NCBI GenBank assembly: GCA_015063785.1
Contig: SVTM01000003.1
Span: forward strand, 7,285 to 71,284
Reading direction: 5' to 3'
Source of the DNA: Oscillospiraceae bacterium
Lineage (GTDB): Bacteria > Bacillota > Clostridia > Oscillospirales > CAG-382
DNA length: 64,000 nt
The notes under the pieces are model-generated. The model saw only the letters and a program-made list of their open reading frames with translations. It was not told where the DNA came from and ran no database searches. A program made the translations under genes and the position numbers. Shown here piece after piece: positions 8,991 to 64,000 of the stretch; the first letter of the stretch is position 1; every line of letters begins with the position of its first letter.

Positions 8991-9902
8991 TTATAACGAA
9001 TCTATATATCTGCACGCCGAAATTGCGGCAACTGCGCCGTCGGCGCAGGCTGTTGCCACCTGGCGAACTGCCTTTTTGCGGCAATCACCTGCAACAAAAA
9101 CACCCTTTGTCTTTGTAGTGCAATCCTCCTGTGCATCGAAATATCCGACAGCATCAAGTTCTGCAAGATTTTCAAAAGGTCCGTTTTCGGGTTCAAGACC
9201 GATGGCAACGAACATACCGTCAAGACTGAGCTCGCTTTCGGTGCCGTCTGCAGTTTTCTTGATGGTAATACCCGAAAACTCGGGGGTGTCGTTGATGCCC
9301 GAAACAACGGTGCCGGTGATTATCTCAACGTTTCCGCGCTTGCGAAGAATCTCTTCCAGGCGCTTTTCACCGGTGAGAAAATCGAGATTCTGCACGACGT
9401 AAACCTTTTTACAGCTTTCGGAAAGAAGTATGGCTTCCTGAAGCGCCGAGTTTCCGCCGCCGATAAGAGCAACCGTTTTGTTCTGATAAAAAGCACCGTC
9501 ACAAACAGCGCAGAAGGATATGCCGTCGCCGATAAATCTTTCTTCGTTTTCAAGGCCAAGGTGTCTGTGCTTTGCGCCACAGGCAAGAATAACCGATTTG
9601 CACTCGTATTCGTTGCCGTCCTCTGTGATGACCTTTTTTGTATCGCCGTCTACAATTTCGACAACGTTTTCTATCTCGACCTCTGTCCCCTGCGAAAGCA
9701 CCTGCTCGACCATTTTGTCTGCAAGCTCGCTGCCGCTTATCGATTCAAAACCGGGATAGTTTTCGACCTTGGGAGAAAATGTGATCTGACCTCCGAAAGC
9801 GGCTTTGTCGAGGATAAGAACTGTTTTATTTGCACGGCGCGCATAGACCGCCGCGGTGAGTCCCGCGGGGCCTGCGCCGACGATTATGATATCATGCATC
9901 AA
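8991..9902 (-). CDS. trxB: thioredoxin-disulfide reductase
   Basis: 303-aa ORF. FAD motif IIIVGAGPAGLTAAVYA, redox-active CAVCDG, NADPH motif GGGNSALQEA. Confidence 0.9.
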   Translation of the reverse strand: MMHDIIIVGAGPAGLTAAVYARRANKTVLILDKAAFGGQITFSPKVENYPGFESISGSELADKMVEQVLSQGTEVEIENVVEIVDGDTKKVITEDGNEYECKSVILACGAKHRHLGLENEERFIGDGISFCAVCDGAFYQNKTVALIGGGNSALQEAILLSESCKKVYVVQNLDFLTGEKRLEEILRKRGNVEIITGTVVSGINDTPEFSGITIKKTADGTESELSLDGMFVAIGLEPENGPFENLAELDAVGYFDAQEDCTTKTKGVFVAGDCRKKAVRQVATACADGAVAAISACRYIDSL

Positions 9903-9917
9903 AGTTTCCTCCGCCTA

Positions 9918-36337: not shown

Positions 36338-39300
36338 TTACGGAAGTCTTGCAGGTGCAAGGCCTGCAGGTTTGTTGATCACGACGGGCTCAAGTGCAGG
36401 GTCGATGATGATGACAACAGCGTTGCTGTCGCCCATGCTGCTTTGCACTTCACTTGCCGCATCATAATCGCAAACAGCATCATGTCCCTTGAGTCTGCCA
36501 AGATTCATTCCCATGGTCTGAACATAGATGTTCTTGTCGTGTTCTTCTGTGGCGTTGGAAGGCAGATAGATAAGACCTGTCCACTCGGCTTCACTGATGG
36601 CTCTGTCGAAGATGTTGTATTCCGTCTTACAGTTCTTTTGATCAGAAAGAGTGGAACCGCAATAGAGCTGGGACGCACGGAATCTTGTGATCGATCCCCA
36701 ACCGTAACCGCCAAGGCGGAGAACGTTATATCTCGAAATAACATCTTCTGTTATTCTTGTGTAGATATCCTTGCCGCCGCCAAGCATATCTGCCGTGGGA
36801 GGAGAGTTGTAGAATTCGATACCCCAGAATACGTATTCCATAAGATTTCCGGTGTATCGAACGTTTTTCTGGATACAGTTGCCGGTTGAAGCCGATCTCT
36901 GATGAGTTGCAGCTGTGTCGTAGATCTGATACATCCAGTTGTTTTCAACAAAATATCCGTCGCATCCGCCGTAAATTTCAACTGCGTTGCCGTAATTTGT
37001 AACTGCTCCGCCGTTGTTTTGGCTGAGAACAGAGCCGCCGAGCCACGAGAAGATGCAGTTTGTAACGGTTACGTCGGAACAGGTGCCAAAGCCCACGCCG
37101 TGGCCGCCTGTGAACTTAAAGGAGATGTTGTCAATGGTAACGCCAGCGGGCGAACCTGCGATGATATTAACCCTTTCGCCAATCTCGATCGACTTGAATC
37201 TTTCGCCGGGATTTCCTTCTGTGCTGTAAACATAAAGATCGTTTACGTTATATCCTTCGCCCGGCAATACAGAATAGAACTGAAGATCGCCGCAAAGCTC
37301 GTGGGGACCGTCAAATCCGCGGGTGTTCTTATTCATGATAAGACCATAAAGCTCGTCGTATGTGGCATCCGAGAAGTCATAGATATCGTGGTCAAAGGCG
37401 ATGACGCCGACGTTGGAAACTGCTTCTGTGCACTTATAAACGTTCTTCCATTCAGTCTCCACCCAAAGGGATGGGTCGGCATAGTTTCTCTTGGACTGCA
37501 TAAGAACAGGCTTTTCGCCTTCGCCGTAGCTACCAAAGATGATCTGCTTGCCGCTTGCCGAAAGGTTGCCGCGATAAACGCCGCCACGCTCGAAAAGGAA
37601 GCTTGTGCCGGGCTTGGGGAATCTGTTTACCTTGTTAAGACCAGCAATAGTCTTAAAAGCTGTTTCGGGAGTTTTTCCGTCGTTTTCGTCGTTACCGTTC
37701 TTTTCGGAAATGTAATATGTGACACCGGTCATTCTGTCGGCATAAAGATCTGCCGTGTTGGGAGTGGCGAGCAGATCCTTTTTCATCTGATTCGAAACGG
37801 TGTCGATACCGTCACGAATAGCCTGCGCAGAAAGGTTTGCGCTCTGCTCGTAAAGTCCTTTTACGTAATCTTCGGTCTTTGTACCCGAAAGAACGTACTT
37901 TGCAGGTTCTGTTTTTGTCCATGCCACGCCTTCGGGATTGCACGCGGCAAGAATCTGACCATTTGCCCAGTGGTTTGTGCTGTCAGAGAAAGAAACTGCG
38001 CCGGCAACGCCTGTGGGAGTTCTGCCGAGGAAACGGTTTGCCATGGTGACAACCTCGGCACGGGTGATATTGTTGTCGGGCTTGAAAGTGTTGTCCTCGT
38101 AGCCTGTTACGATGCCGTTGCCTACTGCAAAATAGATGGCAGGAGCAAATTTGTCAAACTTTTCGACGTCAGAAAATTCGCCGGCTTTAATGGAAGCCGA
38201 AGGATCGCCGTATACGGCAATGCGATAGATAAGCTCTGCAAATTCTGCTCTTGTGATATTCTGTGTGGGAGAAATAGTCGAGCCGTAGGCAATGTTATCG
38301 ATGACGCCGATGTTCTCAAAGAAGCCGATGTACTTTTCATACCATGCGCCCTTGGGGACGTCGGTATATGAGCTTGTAATGCCCGCAAGATTTGTTTCGT
38401 CCACGATAAGACGCGAAAGAAGAGTGATCGCCTCGGCACGTGTCATATTGTTCTGAGGACGGAAGGTACCGTCTTCATAACCTGCAACGTAGTTTGCATT
38501 CTTGTTGACCGCAAGGGTGATGTTTGAGGTAACGACAACGTTCGAAACCCCGTCCGAAAGAGAGTAAACACCGTTGTCGGAAGTTACTGCCGCGCCGTTT
38601 ATTGTAGCCGACTTTGCAGGAAGGCCGCAGCTGTCGGTGATAAGATAGCCTTTAAGGGTTGCGCCGTCAAACTGAGGAACACATTTGCCGCCTGTAACCT
38701 TTACTATGACGTTTGCCGCATTGTCGGCGATCTGTGCATTTTCGTTTTCTGCCATAACAACGATCTTTTTGCCTGTAACTGTGCCTGCGCCTGCGGAGAT
38801 CTTGTTTGCCACAGATGCTCCGTCAAGATAAAGAACAGCGTTTCCGTTGATGGTAGCACCTTCTTTTGCACCGAATACGACGTCGGTGATCTCACCGCCT
38901 GAAAGTGTGGTGATCGAGTTACCGTTTATTGTGCCGCCTGCCGAGCCTGCAACAACTGTTGTTACAGAGCCTCCTATAACAGAGAGGTTGGTGTTGCCGT
39001 TAAATTCACTTTCACCAACATTTCCGCCGACAGCGGTGGCAACGTTTGCGCCGTTGACCACGGCATAGATGTTGGCAGTTATCTTCTGACCATTAACTGC
39101 ACCCGCAGCAAAATAGTCGTAAGTACCTGCGGTGATGCTGAGAGCAACGTCACCAGTGACGTTACCTGCCGCTACCGAAGGGGGATTGGGATATGTGATG
39201 ATATTGTAATCGTCCTGTCTGAACTGCTCTTCGCTGTATGTATCAAAGCCGTTGCCTGTGACAAAATTGTATCCGTTGGTGTAAAGAAATCCTCCGGGGG

Positions 39301-39715
39301 CAAGACGAAGAGTGACAAAATCGAGGATAAGGTCGCCCTTGATGTTAACTTCCTTCACAGGGGCTTCTTCTGTTCCGACAAAGCTCAGGCGGTTGCCTGT
39401 TGCCTTGGTGCCTGTGCCTTTGAAGGTGATGGGGCCACGACCTTCGACATCAACAAAATTCGAAAGATCGAGGTTGCCCGTGAAGATGATGGTTCCGCCC
39501 TCTTTTCCAAGTGCATTGAAAGCATCATCAAAAGTTCTGAATGTTTTATATGCCTTGCCTTCGTAATTCATTTTGCCAAACGAATTGAGAAGCGCGATGC
39601 GTTCGCCGTTTTCTACTATCACAGCGGGATCGTCAGCCGAAAATACGGCAAACTGAACCGATGACATAACGAGAAGGACAGCAAGCATCAGCGATAAGAT
39701 TTTTGCTTTTTTCAT
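36338..39715 (-). CDS. secreted SLH-anchored beta-helix protein (paralog 2)
   Basis: 1125 aa, collinear with the 1004-4372 product. Signal peptide MKKAKILSLMLAVLLVMSSVQFAVFSA, same conserved head (NSFGKMNYEGKAYKTFRTFDDAFNALGKEGG), GGTINGN repeats, three SLH segments, and a C-terminal YYISEKNGNDENDGKTPETAFKT...NNWMYQIYDTAATHQ module. Confidence 0.9.
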   Translation of the reverse strand: MKKAKILSLMLAVLLVMSSVQFAVFSADDPAVIVENGERIALLNSFGKMNYEGKAYKTFRTFDDAFNALGKEGGTIIFTGNLDLSNFVDVEGRGPITFKGTGTKATGNRLSFVGTEEAPVKEVNIKGDLILDFVTLRLAPGGFLYTNGYNFVTGNGFDTYSEEQFRQDDYNIITYPNPPSVAAGNVTGDVALSITAGTYDYFAAGAVNGQKITANIYAVVNGANVATAVGGNVGESEFNGNTNLSVIGGSVTTVVAGSAGGTINGNSITTLSGGEITDVVFGAKEGATINGNAVLYLDGASVANKISAGAGTVTGKKIVVMAENENAQIADNAANVIVKVTGGKCVPQFDGATLKGYLITDSCGLPAKSATINGAAVTSDNGVYSLSDGVSNVVVTSNITLAVNKNANYVAGYEDGTFRPQNNMTRAEAITLLSRLIVDETNLAGITSSYTDVPKGAWYEKYIGFFENIGVIDNIAYGSTISPTQNITRAEFAELIYRIAVYGDPSASIKAGEFSDVEKFDKFAPAIYFAVGNGIVTGYEDNTFKPDNNITRAEVVTMANRFLGRTPTGVAGAVSFSDSTNHWANGQILAACNPEGVAWTKTEPAKYVLSGTKTEDYVKGLYEQSANLSAQAIRDGIDTVSNQMKKDLLATPNTADLYADRMTGVTYYISEKNGNDENDGKTPETAFKTIAGLNKVNRFPKPGTSFLFERGGVYRGNLSASGKQIIFGSYGEGEKPVLMQSKRNYADPSLWVETEWKNVYKCTEAVSNVGVIAFDHDIYDFSDATYDELYGLIMNKNTRGFDGPHELCGDLQFYSVLPGEGYNVNDLYVYSTEGNPGERFKSIEIGERVNIIAGSPAGVTIDNISFKFTGGHGVGFGTCSDVTVTNCIFSWLGGSVLSQNNGGAVTNYGNAVEIYGGCDGYFVENNWMYQIYDTAATHQRSASTGNCIQKNVRYTGNLMEYVFWGIEFYNSPPTADMLGGGKDIYTRITEDVISRYNVLRLGGYGWGSITRFRASQLYCGSTLSDQKNCKTEYNIFDRAISEAEWTGLIYLPSNATEEHDKNIYVQTMGMNLGRLKGHDAVCDYDAASEVQSSMGDSNAVVIIIDPALEPVVINKPAGLAPARLP

Positions 39716-51595: not shown

Positions 51596-52759
51596 TTATA
51601 TCTGAAAAGCTTTTTTTACCTTTTCGAAGAAAGAAGATTTCTTCGAGCTGTTCTTTGCCTCGAGGCTTTCGTCAAACTGCTTTAAAAGATCCTTTTGCTT
51701 CTGCGAAAGATGCTTTGGTATTTCGACCGTTACAGTGAAATAAAGGGTTCCGAAACGCTCCTTGTCTGTCGAGCGCATACGCAGATGCTGGATACCCTTG
51801 TTCTTGATGGGAAAAGTTGTACCAGTCTGCGTACCCTCGGGGATCTCGTATTCGTAATCGCCCGTAAGGGTGGGGACGTGGATCTTTGCACCGAGAGCCG
51901 CCTCGGCGTAAGAGATGGGCACTTCGCAATAAATATCGTATCCGTCACGCTCAAATATCTCGTGCTCACGCACAGCCACCGTGATGAAAAGATCGCCGTA
52001 AGGTCCGCCGTTGCGGCCTGCGTGTCCGTATCCTTCGCGCTTGATGGTGCGGCCGTTGTCGATACCTGCGGGAATATTGACGTCTGCCTTCATGCTCTTT
52101 CTGACGTAACCCGAACCCGAGCATTCCTTGCAGGGGTTCTTTATGGTCTTGCCGCTTCCGCCGCAGGTAGAGCAGGCTCTTGTCTGCTGCATCACGCCAA
52201 AAGGAGTTCTGGTCTGAACGCGCACCTGTCCCGAGCCTTTACAAGCCGAGCAAGTCTCGGGCGACGTGCCCTTTTCGGCACCTGTACCGCCGCAACATTC
52301 GCATCTGTCGGTGCGGCTGTACGAAATGGATTTTTTGCAGCCGAAAGCCGCCTCTTCAAATCCGATGGTAACTCTGACTTCACAATCGGCACCGCGTGTG
52401 GGGGCGTTTCTTCTCTGCGATGATCCTCCGCCGCCAAAACCGCCGCCGAAAAAGCTTGAGAAAATGTCACCGATATCTCCGAAATCCGAACCAAATCCAC
52501 CAAAGCCTGCTCCGCCTGCGCCGAAATTCGGGTCGACGCCTGCGTGACCGAACTGATCATAGCGTGCTTTTTTGTCGCTGTCCGACAGAACTTCGTAGGC
52601 TTCGTTTACTTCCTTGAAATTCTTTTCGGCCTCGGCATCGCCGGGGTTTAGGTCGGGGTGATATTTCTTTGCAAGCTTTCGGAAGGCTTTTTTTATCTCG
52701 TCGTCGCTTGCGCCCTTTTGTATACCAAGGACTTCATAATAATCTCTTTTATCTGCCAT
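51596..52759 (-). CDS. dnaJ: molecular chaperone DnaJ
   Basis: 387 aa. J-domain with HPD (KKYHPDLNP), a G/F-rich region, and four CxxCxGxG zinc-finger repeats. Confidence 0.95.
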
Positions 52760-52862
52760 AAACTTACCTTGTGGTTAAAGTATTTTTTACCGTGTATGCC
52801 GAGAGAAGCCCTCGCTCCCCCCGGCATATACTTTCATTTTATTATATTCTCTTTGAGCAAAA

Positions 52863-54674
52863 TCAGTTTTTGTCCTCAAAGTCGGCGTTGATGGTGCCGT
52901 CATCGTTCTGTGTGCCTGCCTGTGCACCGTCTGCCGCCTGCTGAGCCTGCGCCTGCTGATAAAGCTTTTCGCTGATGGCATAGAATGCCTTGTTGAGTTC
53001 TTCGATGCCTGCCTTGATCTCTTCGGTGTTGCCGCCTGCAACCTTTGTCTTAAGGTTTTCTTTGGCCGTTTCGATGGATGCCTTTTCTTCGGGTGTAACC
53101 TTGTCGCCAAGCTCGGAAAGTGTCTTTTCGCACTGGAAGATAAGCGATTCTGCCTGGTTCTTTGTGTCAACAGCTTCCTTCTGCTTCTTGTCTTCCTCTG
53201 CAAACTTTTCGGCGTCCTTAACAGCCTTTTCGATGTCTTCCTTGGACATATTTGTCGAGGATGTGATGGTGATGTGCTGTTCCTTGCCGGTGCCCTTGTC
53301 TTTGGCAGTAACGTTTACGATACCATTGGCATCGATATCGAAGGTAACTTCGATCTGGGGAACTCCGCGGGGAGCTGCGGGAATGCCGTCGAGAACAAAT
53401 CTGCCGAGAGTTGTATTACCGGCCGCCATTTCGCGTTCGCCCTGGAGAACGTGCACTTCAACAGATGTCTGGCTGTCTGCCGCTGTCGAATAGATCTGGC
53501 TCTTCTTTACGGGGATTGTTGTGTTTCTGTCGATGATCTTGTTGAATACACCGCCGAGGGTCTCGATACCGAGCGAAAGGGGAGTTACGTCAAGAAGAAC
53601 AACGCCCTTAACATCCTGGCTGAAGATACCGCCCTGAACTGCCGCGCCGAGTGCTACGCATTCGTCGGGGTTAAGTCCCTTGGAGGGTTCCTTGCCGATA
53701 AAGTTCTTTACAGCTTCCTGAACTGCAGGGATTCTGGATGAACCACCGACAAGAAGCACCTTAGAGATATCGGAGGGGGAAAGTCCAGCGTCAGAAAGCG
53801 CCTGTCTTGTGGGAACCATAGTCTTTTGAACAAGATCTGCTGTGAGCTCGTCAAACTTCGCTCTCGAAATTGTCATATCAAGGTGCTTGGGGCCTGTGGC
53901 GTCAACTGCGATAAAGGGAAGGTTGACGTTTGTGCTTGTCATGCCCGAAAGCTCAATCTTTGCCTTTTCTGCGGCTTCCTTAAGTCTCTGAAGAGCCATC
54001 TTGTCAAGGCGGAGATCAATGCCTGTGTCTGCCTTGAAGCTGTCTGCCATATAATTCATAAGCTTATCGTCAAAGTCGTCGCCGCCGAGTCTGTTGTTGC
54101 CTGCGGTCGAAAGAACCTCGATAACGCCGTCATCGATTTCAAGAATCGAAACGTCAAAAGTACCGCCGCCAAGGTCGAATACCATGATCTTCTGAGCTTC
54201 CTTGTCCATGCCGTATGCAAGAGCTGCGGCGGTGGGCTCGTTGATGATTCTCTTTACTTCAAGACCTGCGATCTTACCTGCGTCCTTTGTTGCCTGGCGC
54301 TGTGCGTCGGTGAAGTAGGCAGGAACGGTGATAACTGCTTCTGTAACAGTTGTTCCGAGGTAGCTTTCGGCATCAGCCTTGAGCTTCTGAAGAATCATTG
54401 CGGAAATTTCCTGGGGAGTATACTTTTTGCCGTCGATCTCGACCTTCTTGTCTGTACCCATATCTCTCTTGATGGACATAACGGTCTTGTCGGGGTTTGT
54501 AACAGCCTGACGCTTTGCAATCTGGCCAACCATTCTTTCGTCACCCTTAAATGCAACGACCGAAGGTGTTGTTCTCGAGCCTTCTGCGTTTGCGATAACA
54601 ACGGGTTCGCCGCCTTCAAAAACCGCAACGCAAGAGTTTGTTGTACCAAGGTCAATACCAATAATCTTTCCCAT
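52863..54674 (-). CDS. dnaK: molecular chaperone DnaK (Hsp70)
   Basis: 603 aa. Contains [17 protein letters not shown] and other Hsp70 signatures. Confidence 0.97.
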
Positions 54675-54748
54675 AATAATAAATCCTCCTAATGATTGTC
54701 AAATAAAATATATATTAAAATCTGCCGAAAGCCTGAGCTTTCGAAAAA

Positions 54749-55369
54749 TCAGTTTGCAACCTTTACCATTGAGTATCTGATAACTTTGTTTGAAAGCTTG
54801 TATCCCTTCTGGAACACAGCCGTTATCTCGCTTTCGCCCTTTTCGGGGTCATCCTCACGCATTACTGCGTTGTGGATGTTGGGGTCAAAAGTCTCGCCAA
54901 GGGCAGGTATTTCCGAAACGCCGAGCTTTTCAAGTATCTCGCGGAAAGAGCGAAGAACAAGCTCAACCCCCTGCCTTATGGCAGAATCAGCATCGCTGTC
55001 GGTGCTGCAGACTGCGGCGTGTTCAAGATTGTCGAGCACGGGCAGGAATTTTTCAACCACTTCTGCAGTCGTGTCAGAATATATCTTGCTCTTTTCATCA
55101 GCGGTGCGTCGGCGGAAGTTTTCATATTCGGCAAGTACGCGAAGGTACATGTCCTTCTGTTCGGCAAGCTCTGACTTTTGCTTTTCGTTTTCGGCAATCA
55201 GGTCGGCAATAAGCTTTTTTGCCGCATCATCGGCCTTTTCTTTTTTCTTTTTTGTAGCCTTTTCGGGCTTTTCTCCGGCAGGCTTTTCTTTTTCCTGCGC
55301 AGTTACTGTGTCAGCGGCGGTTTCGATCTCTTCGTTTTCGAAATTTGCGCCGTTTTTTTCGTTATTCAT
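54749..55369 (-). CDS. grpE: nucleotide exchange factor GrpE
   Basis: 206 aa. Acidic/lysine-rich N-terminus followed by YLRVLAEYENFRRR, a core GrpE motif. Confidence 0.9.
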   Translation of the reverse strand: MNNEKNGANFENEEIETAADTVTAQEKEKPAGEKPEKATKKKKEKADDAAKKLIADLIAENEKQKSELAEQKDMYLRVLAEYENFRRRTADEKSKIYSDTTAEVVEKFLPVLDNLEHAAVCSTDSDADSAIRQGVELVLRSFREILEKLGVSEIPALGETFDPNIHNAVMREDDPEKGESEITAVFQKGYKLSNKVIRYSMVKVAN

Positions 55370-56471
55370 CTATGTCCTCCGTAGAATATTTTTTCGTATC
55401 TTTCTCCATCGCCCGTCCGAGGCTTTCGGAAAACTGTCTGAGGGTCGAAACGACCTTTCGGTAATCCATACGCTTGGGACCCAATATTCCGATAACCGAT
55501 TCTCCGGCATCGGTGGGCAGGGTACAGAAAACAAGGCTTGTGTCGGACAAAGCCGAGGCTTCGTCCTCGCTGCCGATGTATACCTTCATGCCCGAGCCCG
55601 CCTCGAGGGGAACAAGTCCGCTTCTGTCACCGTTATCGTCGGTGATGTTTTCGGGGCTGGTGAGAAGCTTTTTGATGTAGCCCTTGCGTTTGTCAAAAAC
55701 ATCCATGATGGACTTCAGCTTTTCCACATCCGAAAATTCGGGGTAGGAAAGCAGGTTCGAAAGTCCGTCGATCTTTATGGTGCCGTCGTTTTCCGCCTTG
55801 GTGCAGTTGAAGACCACGCGGATGATTGGGTTGATGATGGGGGCAAGATATCCTGCCTCTTTTTCCATCTTCATAATGAGAGGCATAGTCACCCGATCGA
55901 TCGAAAGCCCGGTCAGATTTTCGTTGAGTATCTGCTTTATGGTAGCAAGAGCCTGCTCGGTGAGAAAATAATCTGTCTTTATCTGTTCGCTTCTTACTTT
56001 TTTCGTGCCGGTTATCATAACAAGGAGAAAGCTTTCCTCGTCGACATACACGGTGTCAAACCGCGAAACGGTGTTTTCCGCCTGTTCTTTGCTGAACGAA
56101 AGAGTAACGCATCCCGTAAGCTCCGACATCACTTTGCCTGCCTGAGTGATAATTTTGTCAAGCTCAGTCGCCTTGAAGTGAGCAAGCTCGTTTATCACGT
56201 TCAGCTCCTCCATCGTGAGCCTGTAATTTTCCATAAGCTCGTCGACGTAAAGGCGATAGGCGTTGCTGGAGGGCACACGTCCGGCGGAGGTGTGGGGCTT
56301 GTCGAGATAGCCCATTTCTTCGAGCTCGGACATCTCGTTGCGGATGGTGGCAGGAGAAAGAGAAATGTTTCCGTGGCTGGTCAGATATTTCGATCCGACA
56401 GGCTCGCCCGAAGCGATATATGCATCTACCACTGATTTGAGTATCTGCTTTTTGCGGTCGTTCAATACCAT
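55362..56471 (-). CDS. hrcA: heat-inducible transcription repressor HrcA
   Basis: LNDRKKQILKSVVDAYIASGEPVGSKYL is the typical HrcA N-terminus. It is the first gene of the dnaK operon, with CIRCE upstream. ATG 56471 is preferred over GTG 56480. Confidence 0.9.
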   Translation of the reverse strand: MVLNDRKKQILKSVVDAYIASGEPVGSKYLTSHGNISLSPATIRNEMSELEEMGYLDKPHTSAGRVPSSNAYRLYVDELMENYRLTMEELNVINELAHFKATELDKIITQAGKVMSELTGCVTLSFSKEQAENTVSRFDTVYVDEESFLLVMITGTKKVRSEQIKTDYFLTEQALATIKQILNENLTGLSIDRVTMPLIMKMEKEAGYLAPIINPIIRVVFNCTKAENDGTIKIDGLSNLLSYPEFSDVEKLKSIMDVFDKRKGYIKKLLTSPENITDDNGDRSGLVPLEAGSGMKVYIGSEDEASALSDTSLVFCTLPTDAGESVIGILGPKRMDYRKVVSTLRQFSESLGRAMEKDTKKYSTEDIDE

Positions 56472-56499
56472 ATTTTTCACGGCTCTCTTTCTGAAAATT

Positions 56500-56788: not shown

Positions 56789-56869
56789 GCATAGTCATCT
56801 GAGCCTATATCCACTCTTTTGAAAATGCGGCATTTTCTGTCGCATTTTATTTCAAAGGAGTGTTTTTTC

Positions 56870-57892
56870 ATGTCAAACACAAAAGCTTCCGACAACGTAA
56901 AGAAGCATTTTGGCAGGCTCATCATTTCTGCCATGTTTTTGGGTCTTGCTGTTGTCATCAACACCTTCACCGAAATTGCTATTCCCCTTTTCGGTGCTGA
57001 CGGAATGCAGGTTAAATTCGGCGGAGTTTTCACCGCTTTCCCTGCCTTTCTTTTTGGTCCCGTATACGGCGGTCTTGTATGTGCCGCGTCGGATATCATC
57101 GGCGCATTCATCAAGCCAACAGGGGCGTATGTTCCGTGGTTTACAATCACGGCGTTCATTGCAGGATTTCTTAAGGGTCTCGTTTTCATGCTCGTTAAGA
57201 ACAAAAACGTAAAATGGCTCAAAGCCGCCATTGCCGTCATGGTTGTGCTTACGGCGTTTATCGGAATTTTCAGTTTTGCATCCATCAAGAATGACAAAAT
57301 ATATGACGGAGCCTTTGCCTCGTCCGAAAACGTTCTTTCGCCTCAGGAAATACTCGACAACCGCGAAAACTATTCTCTCCCCACCCGCATTGCCGTAGAA
57401 TATGCCTTCAGCAACGCAGAAAGACAGCTGCCTGCCATCAAGGACGGCGAAACAGAGGCAGAATATGCCGAAAGACTTCTGAAATACGAAACTCTCGACA
57501 ACGGCGGCGAAGAAATGCATATTCTAAAAAGCAAATTCGCTCCTGCCCTTGCCTCGACGATAAACATCATCGCTCCCACCATGATCACCTTTGCAGTGCT
57601 GGGTTGCATTCTTCTCGTTTTCATGATGCTTGTCGAAAAGAAATATCAGCTCGGCGGCTTTGCGCCAAAGATCTTCCTTTCGGTGCTTGTGGCAGAGCTG
57701 GTGCAAACCTCCATCAACAGCGCGCTTCTCATCAATCTTTACACCGGATCTTATCAGAATTTCTCGTACGCCCTTTTCAACACGCCGCGAGTGCTCGAGG
57801 GCATACTCATGAGCATGATCCTTTCATATTTTATATATGTACTCTATCAGGTGTACGATTCGAAGATCAAAGGAAAACTCAAAATAATATAA
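56870..57892 (+). CDS. folT: folate-family ECF transporter S component (FolT-like) with a large internal insertion
   Basis: The N-terminal half (FGGVFTAFPAFLFGPVYGGLVCAASDIIGAFIKP) fits the FolT/ECF S-component pattern. Start set at ATG 56870 (AAGGAG RBS). At 340 aa it is about twice the usual length. Confidence 0.7.
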   Translation: MSNTKASDNVKKHFGRLIISAMFLGLAVVINTFTEIAIPLFGADGMQVKFGGVFTAFPAFLFGPVYGGLVCAASDIIGAFIKPTGAYVPWFTITAFIAGFLKGLVFMLVKNKNVKWLKAAIAVMVVLTAFIGIFSFASIKNDKIYDGAFASSENVLSPQEILDNRENYSLPTRIAVEYAFSNAERQLPAIKDGETEAEYAERLLKYETLDNGGEEMHILKSKFAPALASTINIIAPTMITFAVLGCILLVFMMLVEKKYQLGGFAPKIFLSVLVAELVQTSINSALLINLYTGSYQNFSYALFNTPRVLEGILMSMILSYFIYVLYQVYDSKIKGKLKII

Positions 57893-57931: not shown

Positions 57932-58423
57932 TCAGTCTATATCCACCCATTCGTATGCTCTTCGCGGATCTCCGTTGGCAAGATATATTATTCCGCAGTA
58001 TGAAAAATCGTTTTTCAGTATCGCCCTTTGCATGGGAAGATTGTCCTTGTGGGTATCCACACGCAGGTGATTGTAATATGCCCGGGCAAATTCTACACAT
58101 TTTGTAAAAAATCCCCTTGTCGTACCGTCGCTTGCCACCTTGTGAAGTGCGGCATACGGTGCATCCGACATCCATCTGCCGCCGTCTATCACTCCGTAGG
58201 TCGGATCCTCTCCCGGGATCATGGCAAAACAGCCGTATATCCTGCCGTTTTCGTCGTGCGCCACATAAAGATTGCCGTTTTCTATATCGACCGGAAGATC
58301 GCCTATGCCGGGATAGTCGGCGTTCCACTGGTTCATATTGCCGTTTTCACGCATGAAAGCGCGTGCGATGTCGTATATTTCAAGAAGTCTTTTAAGATCG
58401 TCTTTTGTTGCTTTCCTTATCAT
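57932..58423 (-). CDS. GNAT family N-acetyltransferase
   Basis: 163 aa. MIRKATKDDLKRLLEIYD... with the acetyl-CoA binding region pattern (HKVASDGTTRGFFTKCVEFA). Confidence 0.8.
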   Translation of the reverse strand: MIRKATKDDLKRLLEIYDIARAFMRENGNMNQWNADYPGIGDLPVDIENGNLYVAHDENGRIYGCFAMIPGEDPTYGVIDGGRWMSDAPYAALHKVASDGTTRGFFTKCVEFARAYYNHLRVDTHKDNLPMQRAILKNDFSYCGIIYLANGDPRRAYEWVDID

Positions 58424-58650
58424 TTTGCCTCACACAAGCTTGTTTTTTCATTTCACCTATTGTAGCATAAGTAGTGCTGAAAGTCAATATGAAAAAGACA
58501 AAATGCACAAAAAAAAGGTTCTCGTTTTGTACGATGTTACAAAATGAAATAAATTACACAAAAGCACTTCCCAAATCATTTGTTTTTGTGTTAAAATGAT
58601 ATAGAATGCCGTAGTGTTGATAATACAAATCTTGCGGCAATGGAGGTAAT

Positions 58651-61600
58651 ATGAAAAAAAGTAACGGAATCCTTGCCCGTATCATGACACTTATTCTTTG
58701 CGTGCTCATGATCGCATCTGTTGTCCCTGTAACTTACGCCGCATCCCCCGAGGTCACAATGATCGGCGGACAGCGCACCGTATTTGTTGCGGGTTTCGGA
58801 CGCATGAACTATGAGGGCAAAGCATACACGGCTTTCAAAACATTTAACGAAGCTTTTAACGCCCTCGGAAAAGAAGGCGGAACGATCGTCATTTCCGGCA
58901 ATATCAACATGAACGATTTTATCGATATTGAAGGCAGAGCTCCCATATCGATCGTCGGCGTCGGCACAAAGAACACCGCAAACTCCCTTAAGTTTACCGC
59001 CGACAATCCCGTCTGGGATCTCAAGGGTGATCTCATCCTCGATTTTCTTACCATCGAGGCTGCCGAAGGTTTTGTTATCAAAACCAACGGACACTCTCTC
59101 AATTTCACAAAAGGCTACGACACACACTATGTGATTGCTGATTACAGAACCGGCGTCAGAACTTATCTCGCCTCGCCTTATGTGGCTGCAGGCGGTTCTG
59201 CCATAACCATCAATGAGGGTAGGTTCGCCACAGTAAGCGCAGCAGGTACAAACGTCAACTCCGGCACTCTCGTTGTTTTGAATGGCGGCACGATCGATAC
59301 AGTTTACGCCGGCGGCTCGGGAGAAGCAGGCGTTATCAATGGTGATGTCCGCATAAAGATCAATGATGGAACAGTCGAAACAGAAGTTGTTGCAGGTTCA
59401 GAATCGGGCACCATCAACGGCAACGTTTTTGTTGACGTTTCGGGTGGTTCTGTTGCAAGTCTTATTGCAGGAAGCACAGTGCCTGACGCTCCCATAAACG
59501 GAAACGTCGTCGTTTCGGTAAAGAACACCTTTGTCCCCAAAGTCGGATCTCCCAAAAACTATTCGGTAACGGGAAAAATCATCTATATTTCCGACGGCGA
59601 GCTCGGTTTTGCGCAGGATGCGGCATACGACTACTTCATCAAGTGTACTAACGGTATCGTAAAACCCATGTTCGACGGAACAACTCTTCTCGGATTTGGC
59701 GTTTACGACGAAACGGGCTGCCCTGCAGACGAGATCAAGATAAACGGCACATCCACAACTCCTGCAAACGGAATATACACCATTCCCGAAGGAAAATCCG
59801 AGATTGAAGTTCTCTCGGGCGTTGGACTTGCCCTCAACGAATACGCAAAGTACGTTTCGGGTTATGAAGACGGCACTTTCCTTCCCCAGAACAACCTCTC
59901 AAGAGCAGAAGCCATCACAATGCTTGCTCGCCTCGTGATCGACGAAAACGCCATCAAAGGCAAGGTCAAATCCTCCTTTGCAGACGTTCCCGCAGGCGCA
60001 TGGTTCGAATCCTACATCGGCCTTTTTGAAAACCTCGGCTATCTTGACACCATCGCCAAGAACGCAGGCACAACCATCGACCCAAATGCCAAGATCACCC
60101 GCGCGGAGTTTGTTGAGGTTGCAAGAAACATCATCAGACTCATGAACCCCAAAGATTTCGGACAGAAAAAGTTTTCTGATGTTTCGTCCTCCCATCCTTA
60201 TGCAAAATCTGTTGGTGAAATCGGTTATCTCGGCATCATCGGCGGTTATGAAGATGGCACCTTCAAGCCCGACAACAACATCACCCGTGCAGAGGTTGTA
60301 ACCATCATCAACCGTATGCTTTCAAGAAAAACCACAGGCGCCGCAGGCGGCACTGTCTTCTCCGACACTGTCGGTCATTGGGCACAGGATCAGATCCTTA
60401 TGGCGGCGAATCCTGCAAACGTTGACGGTGCAGAGATCTGGAAGATCGACGGCGACGTTACCCGCGGAAACTTCAAGCTTCTTGAAGGCGACGTTACTCT
60501 TGACGAGCAGATCGTACACCTTTACGACGTGGCCCAGAAGGGTGTTGATTTCGATACCATCAGCGGCATCGACAGCGTTTCCGACTGGCAGATAGACAAC
60601 ATTGTCTACAGCGAATCCGACTATTCCACCATCACAGGCACAAAGTATTACATCTCTCCCAACGGCGATGACAAGAACGACGGCAAATCTCCCGAGACTG
60701 CATGGAAATCGCTTTCCAAAACAGCAGATCCTTCTGTTAAAGCAGGTGACGGCGTTCTCTTCGAGCGCGGCGCAGTGTTCAGAGGCAGATTCGTTGCCGT
60801 TCCCGGTGTAACCTATTCGGCATACGGCGAAGGTGAAAAGCCAAGATTCTACGGTTCTCTCAAAAACTATGCAGATCCCGAACTCTGGAAGGCAACAGAA
60901 TACACGAACGTATGGCAGTGTACCGATATGTTCTCGCAGGACGTCGGCGTTATCATCTTCAATTCTGATTACCGCATGGGCAACTACAACGAAATCGCAG
61001 GTATGAAGCATGTTGATTCCACAGCCCGCGAGCCCGCGGCTCTCACTTCCGACCTCCAATTCTTCCACTATTTCGGCAGACTCTACGTTTATTCCAAGAG
61101 CAATCCTGGTGAACGCTTCAACTCGATCGAGATCGGTACAAACGGTTCTCTCGTCAATATCGCCGGCAACAACATCGTTATTGATAACCTCCACTTCAGA
61201 TATCACGGCGGACACGTTATCGGAACAGGTAACAGAAAGAACATAACCTGCAAAAACAGCATCTTCGCATATACAGGTGGCTCGATCCTTTCGGGCGATA
61301 CTCGATACGGTAACGCTTTTGAAAGCTACGGCGGATGCGACGGTTGGTATGCATACAACAACTGGATGTATCAGATCTACGACACAGGTGTTACACACCA
61401 GTACACCCCCACCACAGGCGAGTGCATTCAGAAGAACGTTGAATACATCGGAAACGTCATCGAATACTGCCACTGGGGTATTGAATACTACAACCACGAT
61501 TCGACAGACGGCTCGAGAAGACTGGTCGAAAACGTTCAGATGTACAACAACATCGTCCGTATGACAGCATACGGTTGGGGCAGCCGCGGAAGAGCAGGCG

Positions 61601-61911
61601 GAGCAACAGCCTTCTGCTCGGCAGGCATCACAGAAAACACCTCGAACTTTATTGCACGCCGCAACATCATTGACCGTTCGCAGGGACGTGTTATGATGAT
61701 CGACAGCCCCGGTGACAAATACCTCACTCTCGAACAGAACATCCTCGTTCAGAGAAACGGTGGAACATTGGGCGGATTCCATTCGGGATATCACACTGCC
61801 GACAAGCAGGTTGCAAAGATAATTGCAGAACACACCGTTGAAGAGCTTCCCATCGTCATCCTCAACGATGACGTTGCAGTAGTTGACAATATCAAAGCCC
61901 CCACAAGATAA
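58651..61911 (+). CDS. secreted SLH-anchored beta-helix protein (paralog 3, more divergent)
   Basis: 1086 aa. Signal peptide MKKSNGILARIMTLILCVLMIASVVPVTYA. Conserved head GFGRMNYEGKAYTAFKTFNEAFNALGKEGG, GTINGNV repeats, three SLH segments (~59836-60410), and a C-terminal YYISPNGDDKNDGKSPETAWK...NNWMYQIYDTGVTHQ...AYGWGSRGRAGG module. Confidence 0.9.
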   Translation: MKKSNGILARIMTLILCVLMIASVVPVTYAASPEVTMIGGQRTVFVAGFGRMNYEGKAYTAFKTFNEAFNALGKEGGTIVISGNINMNDFIDIEGRAPISIVGVGTKNTANSLKFTADNPVWDLKGDLILDFLTIEAAEGFVIKTNGHSLNFTKGYDTHYVIADYRTGVRTYLASPYVAAGGSAITINEGRFATVSAAGTNVNSGTLVVLNGGTIDTVYAGGSGEAGVINGDVRIKINDGTVETEVVAGSESGTINGNVFVDVSGGSVASLIAGSTVPDAPINGNVVVSVKNTFVPKVGSPKNYSVTGKIIYISDGELGFAQDAAYDYFIKCTNGIVKPMFDGTTLLGFGVYDETGCPADEIKINGTSTTPANGIYTIPEGKSEIEVLSGVGLALNEYAKYVSGYEDGTFLPQNNLSRAEAITMLARLVIDENAIKGKVKSSFADVPAGAWFESYIGLFENLGYLDTIAKNAGTTIDPNAKITRAEFVEVARNIIRLMNPKDFGQKKFSDVSSSHPYAKSVGEIGYLGIIGGYEDGTFKPDNNITRAEVVTIINRMLSRKTTGAAGGTVFSDTVGHWAQDQILMAANPANVDGAEIWKIDGDVTRGNFKLLEGDVTLDEQIVHLYDVAQKGVDFDTISGIDSVSDWQIDNIVYSESDYSTITGTKYYISPNGDDKNDGKSPETAWKSLSKTADPSVKAGDGVLFERGAVFRGRFVAVPGVTYSAYGEGEKPRFYGSLKNYADPELWKATEYTNVWQCTDMFSQDVGVIIFNSDYRMGNYNEIAGMKHVDSTAREPAALTSDLQFFHYFGRLYVYSKSNPGERFNSIEIGTNGSLVNIAGNNIVIDNLHFRYHGGHVIGTGNRKNITCKNSIFAYTGGSILSGDTRYGNAFESYGGCDGWYAYNNWMYQIYDTGVTHQYTPTTGECIQKNVEYIGNVIEYCHWGIEYYNHDSTDGSRRLVENVQMYNNIVRMTAYGWGSRGRAGGATAFCSAGITENTSNFIARRNIIDRSQGRVMMIDSPGDKYLTLEQNILVQRNGGTLGGFHSGYHTADKQVAKIIAEHTVEELPIVILNDDVAVVDNIKAPTR

Positions 61912-61919
61912 AAAATATC

Positions 61920-61955
61920 GGCGGAGCGGAAAATGTTCCGTCTCCGCCGTTTTTT
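61920..61955 (+). terminator. intrinsic terminator after paralog 3
   Basis: Stem GGCGGAGCGGA / TCCGTCTCCGCC (one bulge) with loop AAATGT, followed by GTTTTTT. It ends ~18 nt before the ATG at 61974, with the RBS in between. Confidence 0.7.
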
Positions 61956-61973
61956 CTGAAAAGGAGAAATAAT

Positions 61974-63416
61974 ATGAAAAGAAAACTCCCTGTCGCAGCC
62001 TGCAAAGCTGTCAATGCCATCGACGACCTTAATGCATGCAACATCACCGAATATGCCGAATACAACCGCGGCATAGACGAGGTTGCCGAACAGATGAAGC
62101 AGGACATCATCTGTTCCGAAAGCGTTTATGACAAAAGCAAGAAAACCTTCTACGTTTCAAACTCGGGCGACGACGCAAACGACGGACTTTCGCCCGAAAC
62201 CGCATGGAAGACCCTTGACAAGATCAACGACGCAAATTCTGTCTGCGAAAACTGCAACATTCTCTTTGAACGCGGCGGTCTTTGGCGCGGAATGATCAAA
62301 GTTCCCTACAGCGGCATCACGTATTCGGCATACGGCGTTGGTATGAAGCCCCGTTTTTACGGTTCGAGAAGAAACTACGCCGATCCTTCCCTTTGGCAGA
62401 AGAGCGAATATGAAAATGTATGGTACACCACCGAATGCACCAAAAATGTAGGCATGATTGCCATCAACCATTCGGACGTTATCGGAAAATACGACGAGAT
62501 CATGTGCTATCGCCATGTCGTGGGGCTTGACGACTACGAAGGCCCCTGGCAGCTGAACAAGGAATTTGATTTCTACGGCCACCTGGACGAAGAAATAACA
62601 TATCTTTACTGCGACAAGGGCAATCCCGGCGATGTTTATGACTCTATCGAGCTGGGCGAATTTTTCACCCTCGTTTCTCCCACAAAAAACGCAACAAGAG
62701 ACCTTGTTTTTGACAACCTTTACATAAAATTTGTCGGTGCACACGGCATCGCAGGTCTTGGCGGAAGAGAAAACGTGACAGTTCAGAACTGCCTGTTCTG
62801 CTATCTCGGCGGTTCTATTCTCGACGGTCATTTGGGCAAGCGCGTTTCGGGCTTTGGTAACGCCGTCGAAGTTTATGGCTCTTGCAACGGATATTATGTA
62901 AACGGCAACTGGATTTATCAGATCTACGACACCGCCATCACCCATCAGTGCTCGTCGGGTCCTCGCGATTGTCACATGAACGACGTTGAATATGTGGGCA
63001 ACCTTTGCGAGCTATGCCACTGGTCAATCGAATACTACAACAATCCCAGTGGAGGCGGACACAGAACCGTTTCCAACGTCAACGTTCACCACAACGTGGT
63101 AAGACGCGGCGGCTACGGCTGGGGAAGCCGCGGAAGAGCCAAGGGAGCTGCTCTCTTCAACAGCTTCACCCTTACCCCGGAAACCACAAACTTTGTTAAC
63201 AACACCAACATATACGACGGTTGCGCCGGCGGTATCATCAGATTTATCGAAGGCGGCGACAGAAAGATAATCAACGTCAACAACACCTATATTCAGAAGC
63301 GCGACGGCTACCTTGGTCAGGCATACGGCGATTGGCACACCTTCGACGATGCACAAAAGAAGATCCTTGAAGTATGCCGCGAGCAAAATGCCAGATTCTT
63401 CTACGAAGGAGAATAA
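61974..63416 (+). CDS. stand-alone beta-helix module protein (paralog 4; no signal peptide, no SLH)
   Basis: 480 aa. FYVSNSGDDANDGLSPETAWKTL, FERGGLWRG, GNWIYQIYDTAITHQ and GGYGWGSRGRAKGA align with the C-terminal module of the SLH proteins. AAGGAG RBS. The N-terminus MKRKLPVAACKAVNAIDDLNA is not hydrophobic. Confidence 0.85.
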   Translation: MKRKLPVAACKAVNAIDDLNACNITEYAEYNRGIDEVAEQMKQDIICSESVYDKSKKTFYVSNSGDDANDGLSPETAWKTLDKINDANSVCENCNILFERGGLWRGMIKVPYSGITYSAYGVGMKPRFYGSRRNYADPSLWQKSEYENVWYTTECTKNVGMIAINHSDVIGKYDEIMCYRHVVGLDDYEGPWQLNKEFDFYGHLDEEITYLYCDKGNPGDVYDSIELGEFFTLVSPTKNATRDLVFDNLYIKFVGAHGIAGLGGRENVTVQNCLFCYLGGSILDGHLGKRVSGFGNAVEVYGSCNGYYVNGNWIYQIYDTAITHQCSSGPRDCHMNDVEYVGNLCELCHWSIEYYNNPSGGGHRTVSNVNVHHNVVRRGGYGWGSRGRAKGAALFNSFTLTPETTNFVNNTNIYDGCAGGIIRFIEGGDRKIINVNNTYIQKRDGYLGQAYGDWHTFDDAQKKILEVCREQNARFFYEGE

Positions 63417-63446
63417 GCAAAAAAGCTTTGTGAAGGAGAAATAATT

Positions 63447-64000
63447 ATGACAAAAAGAAATCTTCCGGTTGCCGCAAAAATGGCTGTTGGCGCCATCGAC
63501 GATCTCAACGCCTGCAATATCGCAACCTACGCAGAATACGAAGAAGGCATTGATGAAGTTGCCGCAAAAATGAAGCGCGACATCACTTTTTCAAAAAGTG
63601 TTTACGATAAAAGCAGAAAAACTTTCTATGTTTCAAACTCGGGTGACGATGCAAACGACGGTCTTTCGCCCGAAACCGCATGGAAAACCCTTGACAAGAT
63701 AAACGACCCTACATCTGTCTGCGAAAACTGCAACATTCTCTTTGAACGCGGCGGCATTTGGCGCGGAATCATCAGAGTTCCATACAGCAACATGGCATAT
63801 TCCGCCTATGGCGTTGGAATGAAGCCCCGTCTTTACGGTTCGCTCAGAAACTACGCCCACCCATCGTGCTGGAAAAAGACCGAGTACGAAAACGTTTGGT
63901 ACACCGACGAATGCACCGCAAACGTCGGACTTGTTGCCATCAATCACTCGGACGTGCTCGGAAAATATGACGAAATCATGTGCTCGCGCAATATCGTCGG
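63447..64000 (+). CDS. stand-alone beta-helix module protein (paralog 5), truncated by the window edge
   Basis: Open frame from ATG 63447 (GAAGGAG RBS) to the end of the window: MTKRNLPVAAKMAVGAIDDLNACNIATYAEYEEGIDEVAAKMKRD...FYVSNSGDDANDGLSPETAWKTLDKIND. It is closely similar to paralog 4. Confidence 0.8.
   Translation, partial: MTKRNLPVAAKMAVGAIDDLNACNIATYAEYEEGIDEVAAKMKRDITFSKSVYDKSRKTFYVSNSGDDANDGLSPETAWKTLDKINDPTSVCENCNILFERGGIWRGIIRVPYSNMAYSAYGVGMKPRLYGSLRNYAHPSCWKKTEYENVWYTDECTANVGLVAINHSDVLGKYDEIMCSRNIV

Follow-up and report, generated by a model that had tools for sequence, protein, structure and literature searches.

Results

Organization of the gene array

The last part of a 64,000-nt stretch of DNA from an Oscillospiraceae bacterium (contig SVTM01000003.1; the whole stretch is called the window below) was found to carry three consecutive genes of one protein family. 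The first encodes a wall-anchored protein, and the other two, here called short copies 1 and 2, encode copies of its C-terminal β-helix module. A preliminary description of the sequence had recognized these three open reading frames (ORFs) at 58651-64000, their domain layout and the sequence blocks conserved among the copies, all of which were present as described. In addition to the window, 84 loci with relatives of the family were fetched and numbered (L-numbers). One of them, L001 (JGI contig Ga0318466_10001815), covers the end of the window and differed from it at 1 position in 12,027 overlapping bases. The features of the array were as follows.

58651-61911, + strand: anchored gene, ORF of 1086 amino acids (aa)
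58651-58740, + strand: signal peptide (aa 1-30) of the anchored protein; hydrophobic core with a Kyte-Doolittle mean of 3.04 over 10 residues, putative cleavage site ...VTYA/A
58741-59826, + strand: N-terminal Gly/Asn-rich all-β solenoid and β-sandwich, aa 31-392; AlphaFold2 (AF2) pLDDT 71
59830-60390, + strand: three SLH repeats, cell-wall anchor; Pfam PF00395, E 6.5e-26, three stretches
60538-61911, + strand: C-terminal β-helix module, aa 630-1086; family hidden Markov model (HMM), E 7.6e-169 over aa 630-1074
61963-61966, + strand: GGAG, Shine-Dalgarno (SD) sequence of short copy 1
61974-63416, + strand: short copy 1, 480 aa, two-helix cap and β-helix module, without export signal; 17 Cys
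63435-63438, + strand: GGAG, SD sequence of short copy 2
63447->64000, + strand: short copy 2, cut at the window edge, 480 aa when complete on L001, with a terminator after it; 18 Cys

The preliminary description had suggested that the array may continue past the window edge. On L001 it ended at short copy 2, which was followed by a 15-bp bidirectional terminator and then by an unrelated convergent gene, so that the local array consists of one anchored gene and two short genes. The convergent gene was considered as a third copy and rejected, being unrelated to the family and without a match in Pfam or the PDB. The number of copies varied among related loci. The anchored gene was accompanied by three short copies in L007 (a metagenome-assembled genome (MAG) with 92% identity) and by one in each of L010 and L012. 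L004 contained two short copies and no anchored gene, and L005, L008 and L013 contained a single short copy each.

Structure and conserved residues of the module

The AF2 model of the module, built from a 65-sequence alignment (pLDDT 96.6, pTM 0.94), consisted of a two-helix cap followed by a right-handed, three-faced β-helix with short strands stacked over residues 57-456. All significant matches of the model in the PDB and BFVD were β-helix proteins, and the viral matches from BFVD were generic β-helices of the tailspike type. Over 437 aa, the anchored module shared 43% identity with short copy 1 (E 6e-107). Among the residues invariant in the 65 sequences, which included anchored and signal-less forms, were R100, K125, D247, D319, T320, T323, Q325, C348, W350, E353, and Y355. 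The single fold that had been proposed for the anchored and short copies was borne out, and all three proteins of the array retained every invariant residue. Residues D319 and E353 were located on successive coils of the model and are candidate catalytic residues.

Sequence searches did not place the module in a described family. A Pfam scan of the short copy returned no family even at E<=10, and PF13229 (Beta_helix) had no match at this threshold in the window proteins; a few homologues just passed its gathering cut-off (27.5 vs 25.9). For some homologues a precomputed assignment to PF22842 existed, but it was not reproduced here and the family could not be given a name. In NCBIfam, residues 55-101 were matched to the start of the lacto-N-biosidase LnbX with 24 bits (cut-off 2500). 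The single sequence of a short copy had no match in the PDB. The profile of 65 sequences, when compared with the PDB, matched four GH136 lacto-N-biosidase structures (E 1e-14 to 1e-10) at profile positions 34-118, which correspond to the first coils.

Structure prediction followed by Foldseek, as suggested in the preliminary description, yielded best PDB matches that were all glycosidases or lyases. They were headed by the GH120 enzyme XylC (6e-10), GH136 (9e-9 to 3e-6) and the GH141 enzyme BT_1002 (4e-8), with a capsule lyase, GH110 and then GH28, PL9 and PL6 behind them. The model suggests that the module most likely represents an enzyme family that cleaves glycans. It was read as an enzyme rather than a scaffold because the invariant residues were kept in all forms and because fusions to acetyl-xylan/GDSL esterases and to dockerin were found.

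Export signals and the N-terminal cap

The anchored protein contained both a Sec-type signal peptide and SLH repeats. Neither short ORF could be extended upstream, since its start codon was the first after a stop. The highest 10-residue Kyte-Doolittle mean in the short copies was 1.5-1.8, compared with 3.0 in the anchored protein, and the highest 19-residue hydrophobicity window was 1.1-1.25. The Pfam scan revealed no SLH, dockerin, cohesin or other domain in them. By hydrophobicity and Pfam, the short copies thus had no signal peptide, lipobox, transmembrane helix or wall-anchoring domain, in agreement with the preliminary description, which had reported no signal peptide or anchor. The sequence VAAC at residues 7-10 of short copy 1 was rejected as a lipobox, as it lies too early after the start and was absent in most orthologues. 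The signal-less form is the majority among the 120 closest homologues in the database, 71 of which had no hydrophobic N-terminus, whereas 37 had a lipobox and 12 a signal peptide. In the family at large, a signal peptide was missing from about half of the members.

The cysteine content also differed between the two forms. The anchored module contained 6 Cys in 456 aa. Over species-representative genomes, the median was 3.0% in signal-less modules (n=34) and 1.7% in signal-bearing ones (n=55; Mann-Whitney p 1.4e-12), a contrast that is not phylogenetically independent. In Firmicutes, among them 11 of 20 anaerobic species, cysteine tends to be avoided in exported proteins but not in cytoplasmic ones (PMC2823432). 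The cysteine-rich signal-less modules therefore fit with the presence of the family in two compartments.

The short copies had been described as starting with a hydrophilic head of about 60 aa. This head turned out to be the two-helix cap, with helices at residues 7-21 and 27-46, which formed a helical hairpin packed on the start of the β-helix (pLDDT ~97 for the first ~55 residues). The segment was also present in the anchored protein (GIDSVSDWQIDNIVYSESDY vs GIDEVAEQMKQDIICSESVY), and in homologues from other phyla (P0105, P0106, P0109, and P0116) the cap directly followed ordinary signal peptides. As modelled, the cap is part of the fold and is neither a localisation device nor a chaperone domain of the LnbY type discussed below. 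Taken together, these sequence features suggest that the two 480-aa copies would stay in the cytoplasm.

Promoter, hairpin and proposed read-through

The following elements upstream of and within the array are relevant to its transcription.

58526-58543, + strand: perfect palindrome TTTGTACGATGTTACAAA, candidate regulator site located ~25 nt 5' of the -35 element of the promoter
58568-58597, + strand: promoter-like site TTCCCA-18-TAAAAT with an extended -10 (TGnTAnAAT) and a weak -35
61919-61955, + strand: terminator-like hairpin (stem 61919-61949) and T-run (61950-61955), proposed leaky terminator

The TGnTAnAAT element was invariant in the alignment with L004, L005, and L007. The palindrome TTTGTACGATGTTACAAA occurred once in the window (0.07 expected) and was present at the orthologous position in L001, L004, L005, L007, L009, and L010, with or without the anchored gene. 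The window and L007 had both promoter and palindrome 5' of their anchored gene, and L009 and L010 had the palindrome there; in L004 and L005, the homologous region lay directly 5' of the short genes. The idea that the palindrome marks a regulon was dropped: among the 84 fetched loci it appeared at the orthologous locus only and not 5' of other paralogues. An Rfam scan of 58300-64000 gave no match at E<=1 and no riboswitch or known RNA leader.

The hairpin that had been noted just ahead of short copy 1 proved to be real. It has the form of an intrinsic terminator, with a 13-bp stem containing one bulge, a loop of 4 nt and six T residues, and the ATG of short copy 1 starts 18 nt past the T-run. 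The 81-nt stretch that holds it (61905-61985) had a folding energy of -28.7 kcal/mol (z = -5.8 vs shuffles). The CGGCGGAG/CTCCGCCG base of the stem and the T-run were kept in L009, L007, L010, and L004, whereas the upper stem and loop varied. No hairpin was found between the short copies, and a strong terminator followed the last copy in each genome. Towards its 3' end, the anchored gene contained a single promoter-like site (61670-61697), which was rejected as a conserved feature because substitutions private to the strain had created its -35 and TG elements.

In L004 the promoter was followed, after ~45 nt, by the stop-codon region left over from the anchored gene and then by the hairpin, ribosome-binding site (RBS) and two intact short genes. 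The corresponding segment of this locus (9800-10001) showed that the whole anchored ORF was lost while the promoter region, the stop-codon bases and the hairpin were kept 5' of the short genes. Internal leaky terminators are common. Read-through is the most economical route to expression of the short genes, since there is no space for a promoter between the hairpin and short copy 1, the internal site is strain-specific and the hairpin is conserved, including in L004. These observations support the suggestion of the preliminary description that the short genes could be expressed by read-through, the simplest scheme being a single upstream promoter with partial read-through at the hairpin. In the minimum free energy fold, the U-run of the terminator paired with the SD region of short copy 1 (61950-61969). 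This pairing might mask the RBS in read-through RNA and lower the translation of short copy 1, or it may simply reflect the complementarity of U-rich and purine-rich sequence.

Age of the duplication and constraint on the short genes

The two short copies were 77% identical in protein and 75% in DNA. Their common RBS context and the run of 41 identical nt (62238-62278 = 63714-63754), from which a recent duplication or gene conversion had been proposed, were both exact; the proposal itself did not hold. Short copy 1 grouped with the first short copies of L007 (92%) and L004 (88%), and short copy 2 with the second ones of the same loci (87% and 85%). As each short copy has its own orthologues in two other species, the split between them predates the three species. 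The most conserved block is encoded by codons 80-120, and the 41-nt run falls within them. In this block, identical codons numbered 29 of 37 between orthologues, 30 of 39 between the L004 paralogues and 31 of 37 between the two copies of the window. Since the block was equally conserved at the codon level between orthologues, the run is no evidence of recent duplication or of lineage-specific conversion. The idea that the short copies serve as silent cassettes for gene conversion was rejected as well, because they have their own RBS and start codon and share only 43% identity with the anchored module, and because the pair was not homogenised within the genome relative to the orthologues.

Identities to L009, L007 and L012 were 96, 92, and 70% for short copy 1 and 95, 88, and 70% for the anchored module. 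Orthologues of the short copies were 85-96% identical across L009, L007, and L004. The short genes are thus constrained to the same degree as the anchored module, which argues against decay, and they were retained without the anchored gene in L004, L005, and L013. By this pattern of conservation, the short genes appear to be functional. The corresponding identities of the N-terminal solenoid were 82, 63, and 46%, which mark it, at the sequence level, as the fastest-evolving part of the anchored protein. The solenoid is presumably also its outermost part. Its AF2 model had no match in the PDB at E<0.1, and a homologue (word) search found two proteins only.

In a neighbour-joining tree of the modules of RGIG7446, the MAG of L009, the clade of 480-aa short copies was sister to the clade with the adjacent anchored protein, and a second signal-less clade arose elsewhere, the method being weak at such divergence.

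Size, distribution and genomic context of the family

When 1.84 billion representative proteins were scanned with HMMER, the family comprised 1,828 clusters (50% identity) with E<=1e-30; at E<=1e-10 there were 7,843. With one genome per species (GTDB), 173 stretches encoded relatives. These were concentrated in ~25 MAGs of uncultured gut bacteria that carry the labels Clostridia, Eubacteriales or Oscillospiraceae and whose hosts were buffalo, deer, sheep, chicken, and human; in addition, the family was present in one MAG each of Kiritimatiellia and Verrucomicrobiota. RGIG7446 came from water-buffalo colon and was taken as the same species as the window, as L009 was 96% identical and syntenic with it. 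Counted over the fetched loci only, RGIG7446 had at least 21 members, comprising 11 with signal peptide and SLH repeats, 2 otherwise exported and 8 signal-less ones; other MAGs had 18, 11, 11, and 10. Two more anchored paralogues were found in the window, which brings its family members to five.

1004-4372, + strand: anchored paralogue, 1122 aa; family HMM E 8e-156, SLH region E 6.5e-69
36338-39715, - strand: anchored paralogue, 1125 aa; family HMM E 2.6e-155, SLH region E 2.4e-59

Both had the signal peptide, solenoid, SLH repeats and module of 58651-61911. The identity between the two was 64%, and either one shared 41-44% with 58651-61911, with 44% over the full length for 1004-4372. Tandem arrays consisted of long forms (L079 and L084), of short forms (four in L040, three in L042 and L046) or of both (L011, L024, L026, L036, and L044). 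The accessory domains of long members were SLH (16 of 38), acetyl-xylan, GDSL and other esterases, Listeria-Bacteroides repeats, choline-binding repeats, dockerin and leucine-rich repeats of the BspA type, which fit extracellular polysaccharide-active enzymes.

Neither the clustering of 746 ORFs from the fetched loci, with family members excluded, nor a Pfam scan of 79 neighbours of signal-less members revealed a recurrent partner. A signal-less subclade of 483-aa proteins (L016, L018, and L066; 54-56% identical to short copy 1) was followed at its 3' side by a signal-less protein of ~620 aa with a heparinase II/III C-terminal domain, the sole recurrent carbohydrate-related neighbour:

L016, 9464-11329: heparinase II/III-like neighbour
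L018, 9467-11326: heparinase II/III-like neighbour
L066, 9468-11318: heparinase II/III-like neighbour

Other neighbours were a GH140-like apiosidase and a BNR protein in L005, and solute-binding proteins and AraC regulators in a few loci. L006 (10001-17010) contained three tandem lipoprotein-type members of 751-753 aa with different N-terminal domains of ~290 aa, as did L021; those of L006 adjoin a metallophosphoesterase and are near a GH29 fucosidase.

Around the array itself, an ordinary hrcA-grpE-dnaK-dnaJ heat-shock operon was located upstream (window 51596-56480, - strand). Between this operon and the anchored gene were an ECF-type S-component gene (56819-57892, + strand) and a small GNAT-like gene (57932-58423, - strand). 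The convergent gene just past the window end (L001 12960-14873, - strand) had an in-frame stop at codon 78 and was otherwise 98% identical to its 637-aa orthologue in L009, so that the stop is either a nonsense mutation or a sequencing error.

Discussion

Proposed model and its alternatives

The reading we favor, which we hold at about an even chance, is that the three genes form one transcription unit of paralogous β-helix glycan enzymes, with one copy on the wall and two copies made in the cytoplasm through read-through. In this model, transcription would start at the conserved promoter 5' of the anchored gene, and a strong but leaky terminator would let a fraction of the transcripts reach both short genes, each with its own good SD sequence, before the second terminator closes the unit. 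Much wall enzyme and less cytoplasmic enzyme would be the outcome. The anchored product would be exported, held on the wall by the three SLH repeats and attack extracellular polysaccharide, while the two 480-aa copies would act in the cytoplasm on smaller imported glycan fragments, the substrate and its uptake being conjectural. The gene structure, homology, fold, absence of signals and conservation of hairpin and promoter were established directly; what we infer is that the proteins are enzymes, that the short copies are cytoplasmic, that the terminator is read through and that labour is divided between the copies. The processing of oligosaccharides inside the cell by the short copies is plausible.

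Several points weigh against this model. The absence of signal peptides was judged by hydrophobicity and not by SignalP, and the cysteine contrast, as stated above, is not phylogenetically independent. The TM-scores of the fold matches were low (0.26-0.44), so the module has no close solved relative, and the sequence similarity to GH136 was confined to ~80 N-terminal residues. Searches of the literature found no characterized member of the family, and the activity of no member is known. A hairpin with six U residues looks efficient, and the short genes may therefore be expressed very weakly. No Pfam family was found in more than 2 of the 79 neighbours of 36 signal-less members, and sugar transporters or catabolic genes were not enriched beside signal-less members, which is unusual for intracellular oligosaccharide-processing enzymes of Firmicutes. 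The missing transporter-linked locus is the main weakness of the model of imported oligosaccharides.

The same lack of import and catabolic genes would be accounted for if the short copies were cytoplasmic enzymes acting on the glycans of the cell itself, such as turnover products or precursors of its capsule, S-layer glycan or secondary cell-wall polymer. The co-occurrence with SLH-anchored paralogues, which sit on the secondary cell-wall polymer, and occasional neighbours such as a sugar transferase, a DegT aminotransferase and a CpsD-like kinase are in keeping with this role. We consider it unlikely, as those neighbours were not recurrent, the substrate is without direct evidence, and the fusions to esterases and dockerin seen elsewhere suggest plant or foreign polysaccharides as targets. 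A non-enzymatic role appears slightly less likely still. Here the β-helix would be a surface scaffold or adhesin used in surface variation, and the signal-less copies would be spare or decaying genes silenced behind the terminator. The large expansion of SLH-anchored copies scattered among housekeeping genes, the fast-evolving outer solenoid and the strong terminator 5' of the short genes could be explained in this way. However, the short genes were intact with good RBSs, their rate of evolution in at least five species was as low as that of the anchored module, and at 43% identity they are too diverged from that module to be recombination donors. The charged and polar residues were invariant in all forms, the fold neighbours were all glycan-cleaving enzymes, and fusions to esterases and dockerin exist.

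It is likewise unlikely, in our view, that the short copies leave the cell non-classically (by lysis, holin-like release or an unrecognized signal) and work outside with the anchored paralogue or docked to it. The adjacency of anchored and signal-less members did recur in non-orthologous loci and in both orders (L011, L024, L026, L036, and L044), and the transporter context expected for the supply of a cytoplasmic substrate was not seen. On the other hand, the N-terminal cap follows normal signal peptides in other homologues and is thus no substitute signal, the short copies are rich in cysteine like cytoplasmic proteins, they lack dockerin, cohesin and SLH, and they persisted without an anchored neighbour in L004, L005, L008, and L013.

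Among enzymes that degrade glycans, it is ordinary for paralogues to be paired on the surface and inside the cell from one operon, and the local arrangement, in which two signal-less copies follow an anchored gene behind a leaky terminator, would be of this kind. The interest lies in the family, whose module has no Pfam, NCBIfam or PDB assignment, amounts to ~1,800 clusters at 50% identity and accounts for an unusually large share of the surface proteins in an uncultured lineage of Clostridia from herbivore and human gut. Discovery of the substrate would explain what thousands of gut-metagenome proteins annotated as ‘hypothetical’ do and might establish a new CAZy family, and the conserved pairs of anchored and cytoplasmic members offer a natural experimental handle. 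A bolder possibility, to which we give limited credence, is that of a new carbohydrate-active enzyme family, which a lineage of uncultured gut Clostridia would have expanded to more than 20 paralogues per genome and would use as its main glycan-degrading apparatus, with coupled surface and signal-less pairs and without classical transporter-linked loci. If so, the signal-less copies would exit by an unknown route or act on an unanticipated class of cytoplasmic substrate.

Comparison with known systems

The closest system by sequence is GH136 (LnbX of Bifidobacterium longum, ErLnb136, RhLnb136, TnX, and BsaX). Both have a right-handed β-helix, and the first coils of GH136, including the start YYVSxxGxDxNDG...FERG, matched the module (E 1e-14 to 1e-10; fold E 9e-9). 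The similarity of sequence ended after ~80 residues, TM-scores were 0.25-0.39, and no sequence similarity over the catalytic β-helix was found. GH136 enzymes require for their activity an LnbY-type partner of ~220 aa with eight helices, encoded by a separate gene or as an N-terminal domain (PMC7335108). No such partner was found here; the module has only the two-helix cap, and the flanking genes were paralogues, the GNAT gene and an unrelated gene. In GH136 the catalytic acid/base and nucleophile are Asp residues seven positions apart (D568/D575 in ErLnb136); no such Asp-x6-Asp was seen among the invariant or near-invariant columns of the module, in a region without residue-level alignment to GH136. 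Because the similarity is limited to the first coils, the LnbY-type partner is missing and no Asp-x6-Asp pair was seen among the conserved columns, the module family is judged from its sequence to be distinct from GH136. GH136 comprises exported members (LnbX and RiLea/b136) and the signal-less intracellular RhLnb136 (PMC7335108), so that the location of a β-helix glycosidase family on both sides of the membrane is already established. The apparent occurrence of the module on the surface and inside the cell, regarded as unexpected in the preliminary description, thus has a precedent, and it agrees with the signal-less majority among the closest homologues.

The GH120 β-xylosidase XylC (PDB 3vst) was the top fold match of the module (E 6e-10, TMq 0.42). 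XylC is a β-helix glycosidase with acidic catalytic residues on neighbouring coils, and the invariant D319 and E353 of the module are one coil apart. The two differ in sequence, with no profile match at E<=10 and 13% identity in the fold alignment. The GH141 α-L-fucosidase BT_1002 (PDB 5mqp) and the GH110 α-galactosidases also have the β-helix glycosidase fold (E 4e-8 to 1e-4). Neither showed a relationship at the sequence level, with identities of 10-11% (TMq 0.40-0.44) for GH141 and 7-10% (TMq 0.29-0.36) for GH110.

SLH repeats are a known means of holding polysaccharide-degrading enzymes on the cell wall. The anchored protein differs from the SLH-anchored glycanases of Gram-positive bacteria in that its SLH repeats are located in the middle of the protein, between the solenoid and a module of an uncharacterized family, but it has the same design, in which a signal peptide, three SLH repeats and a catalytic module are combined in one polypeptide.

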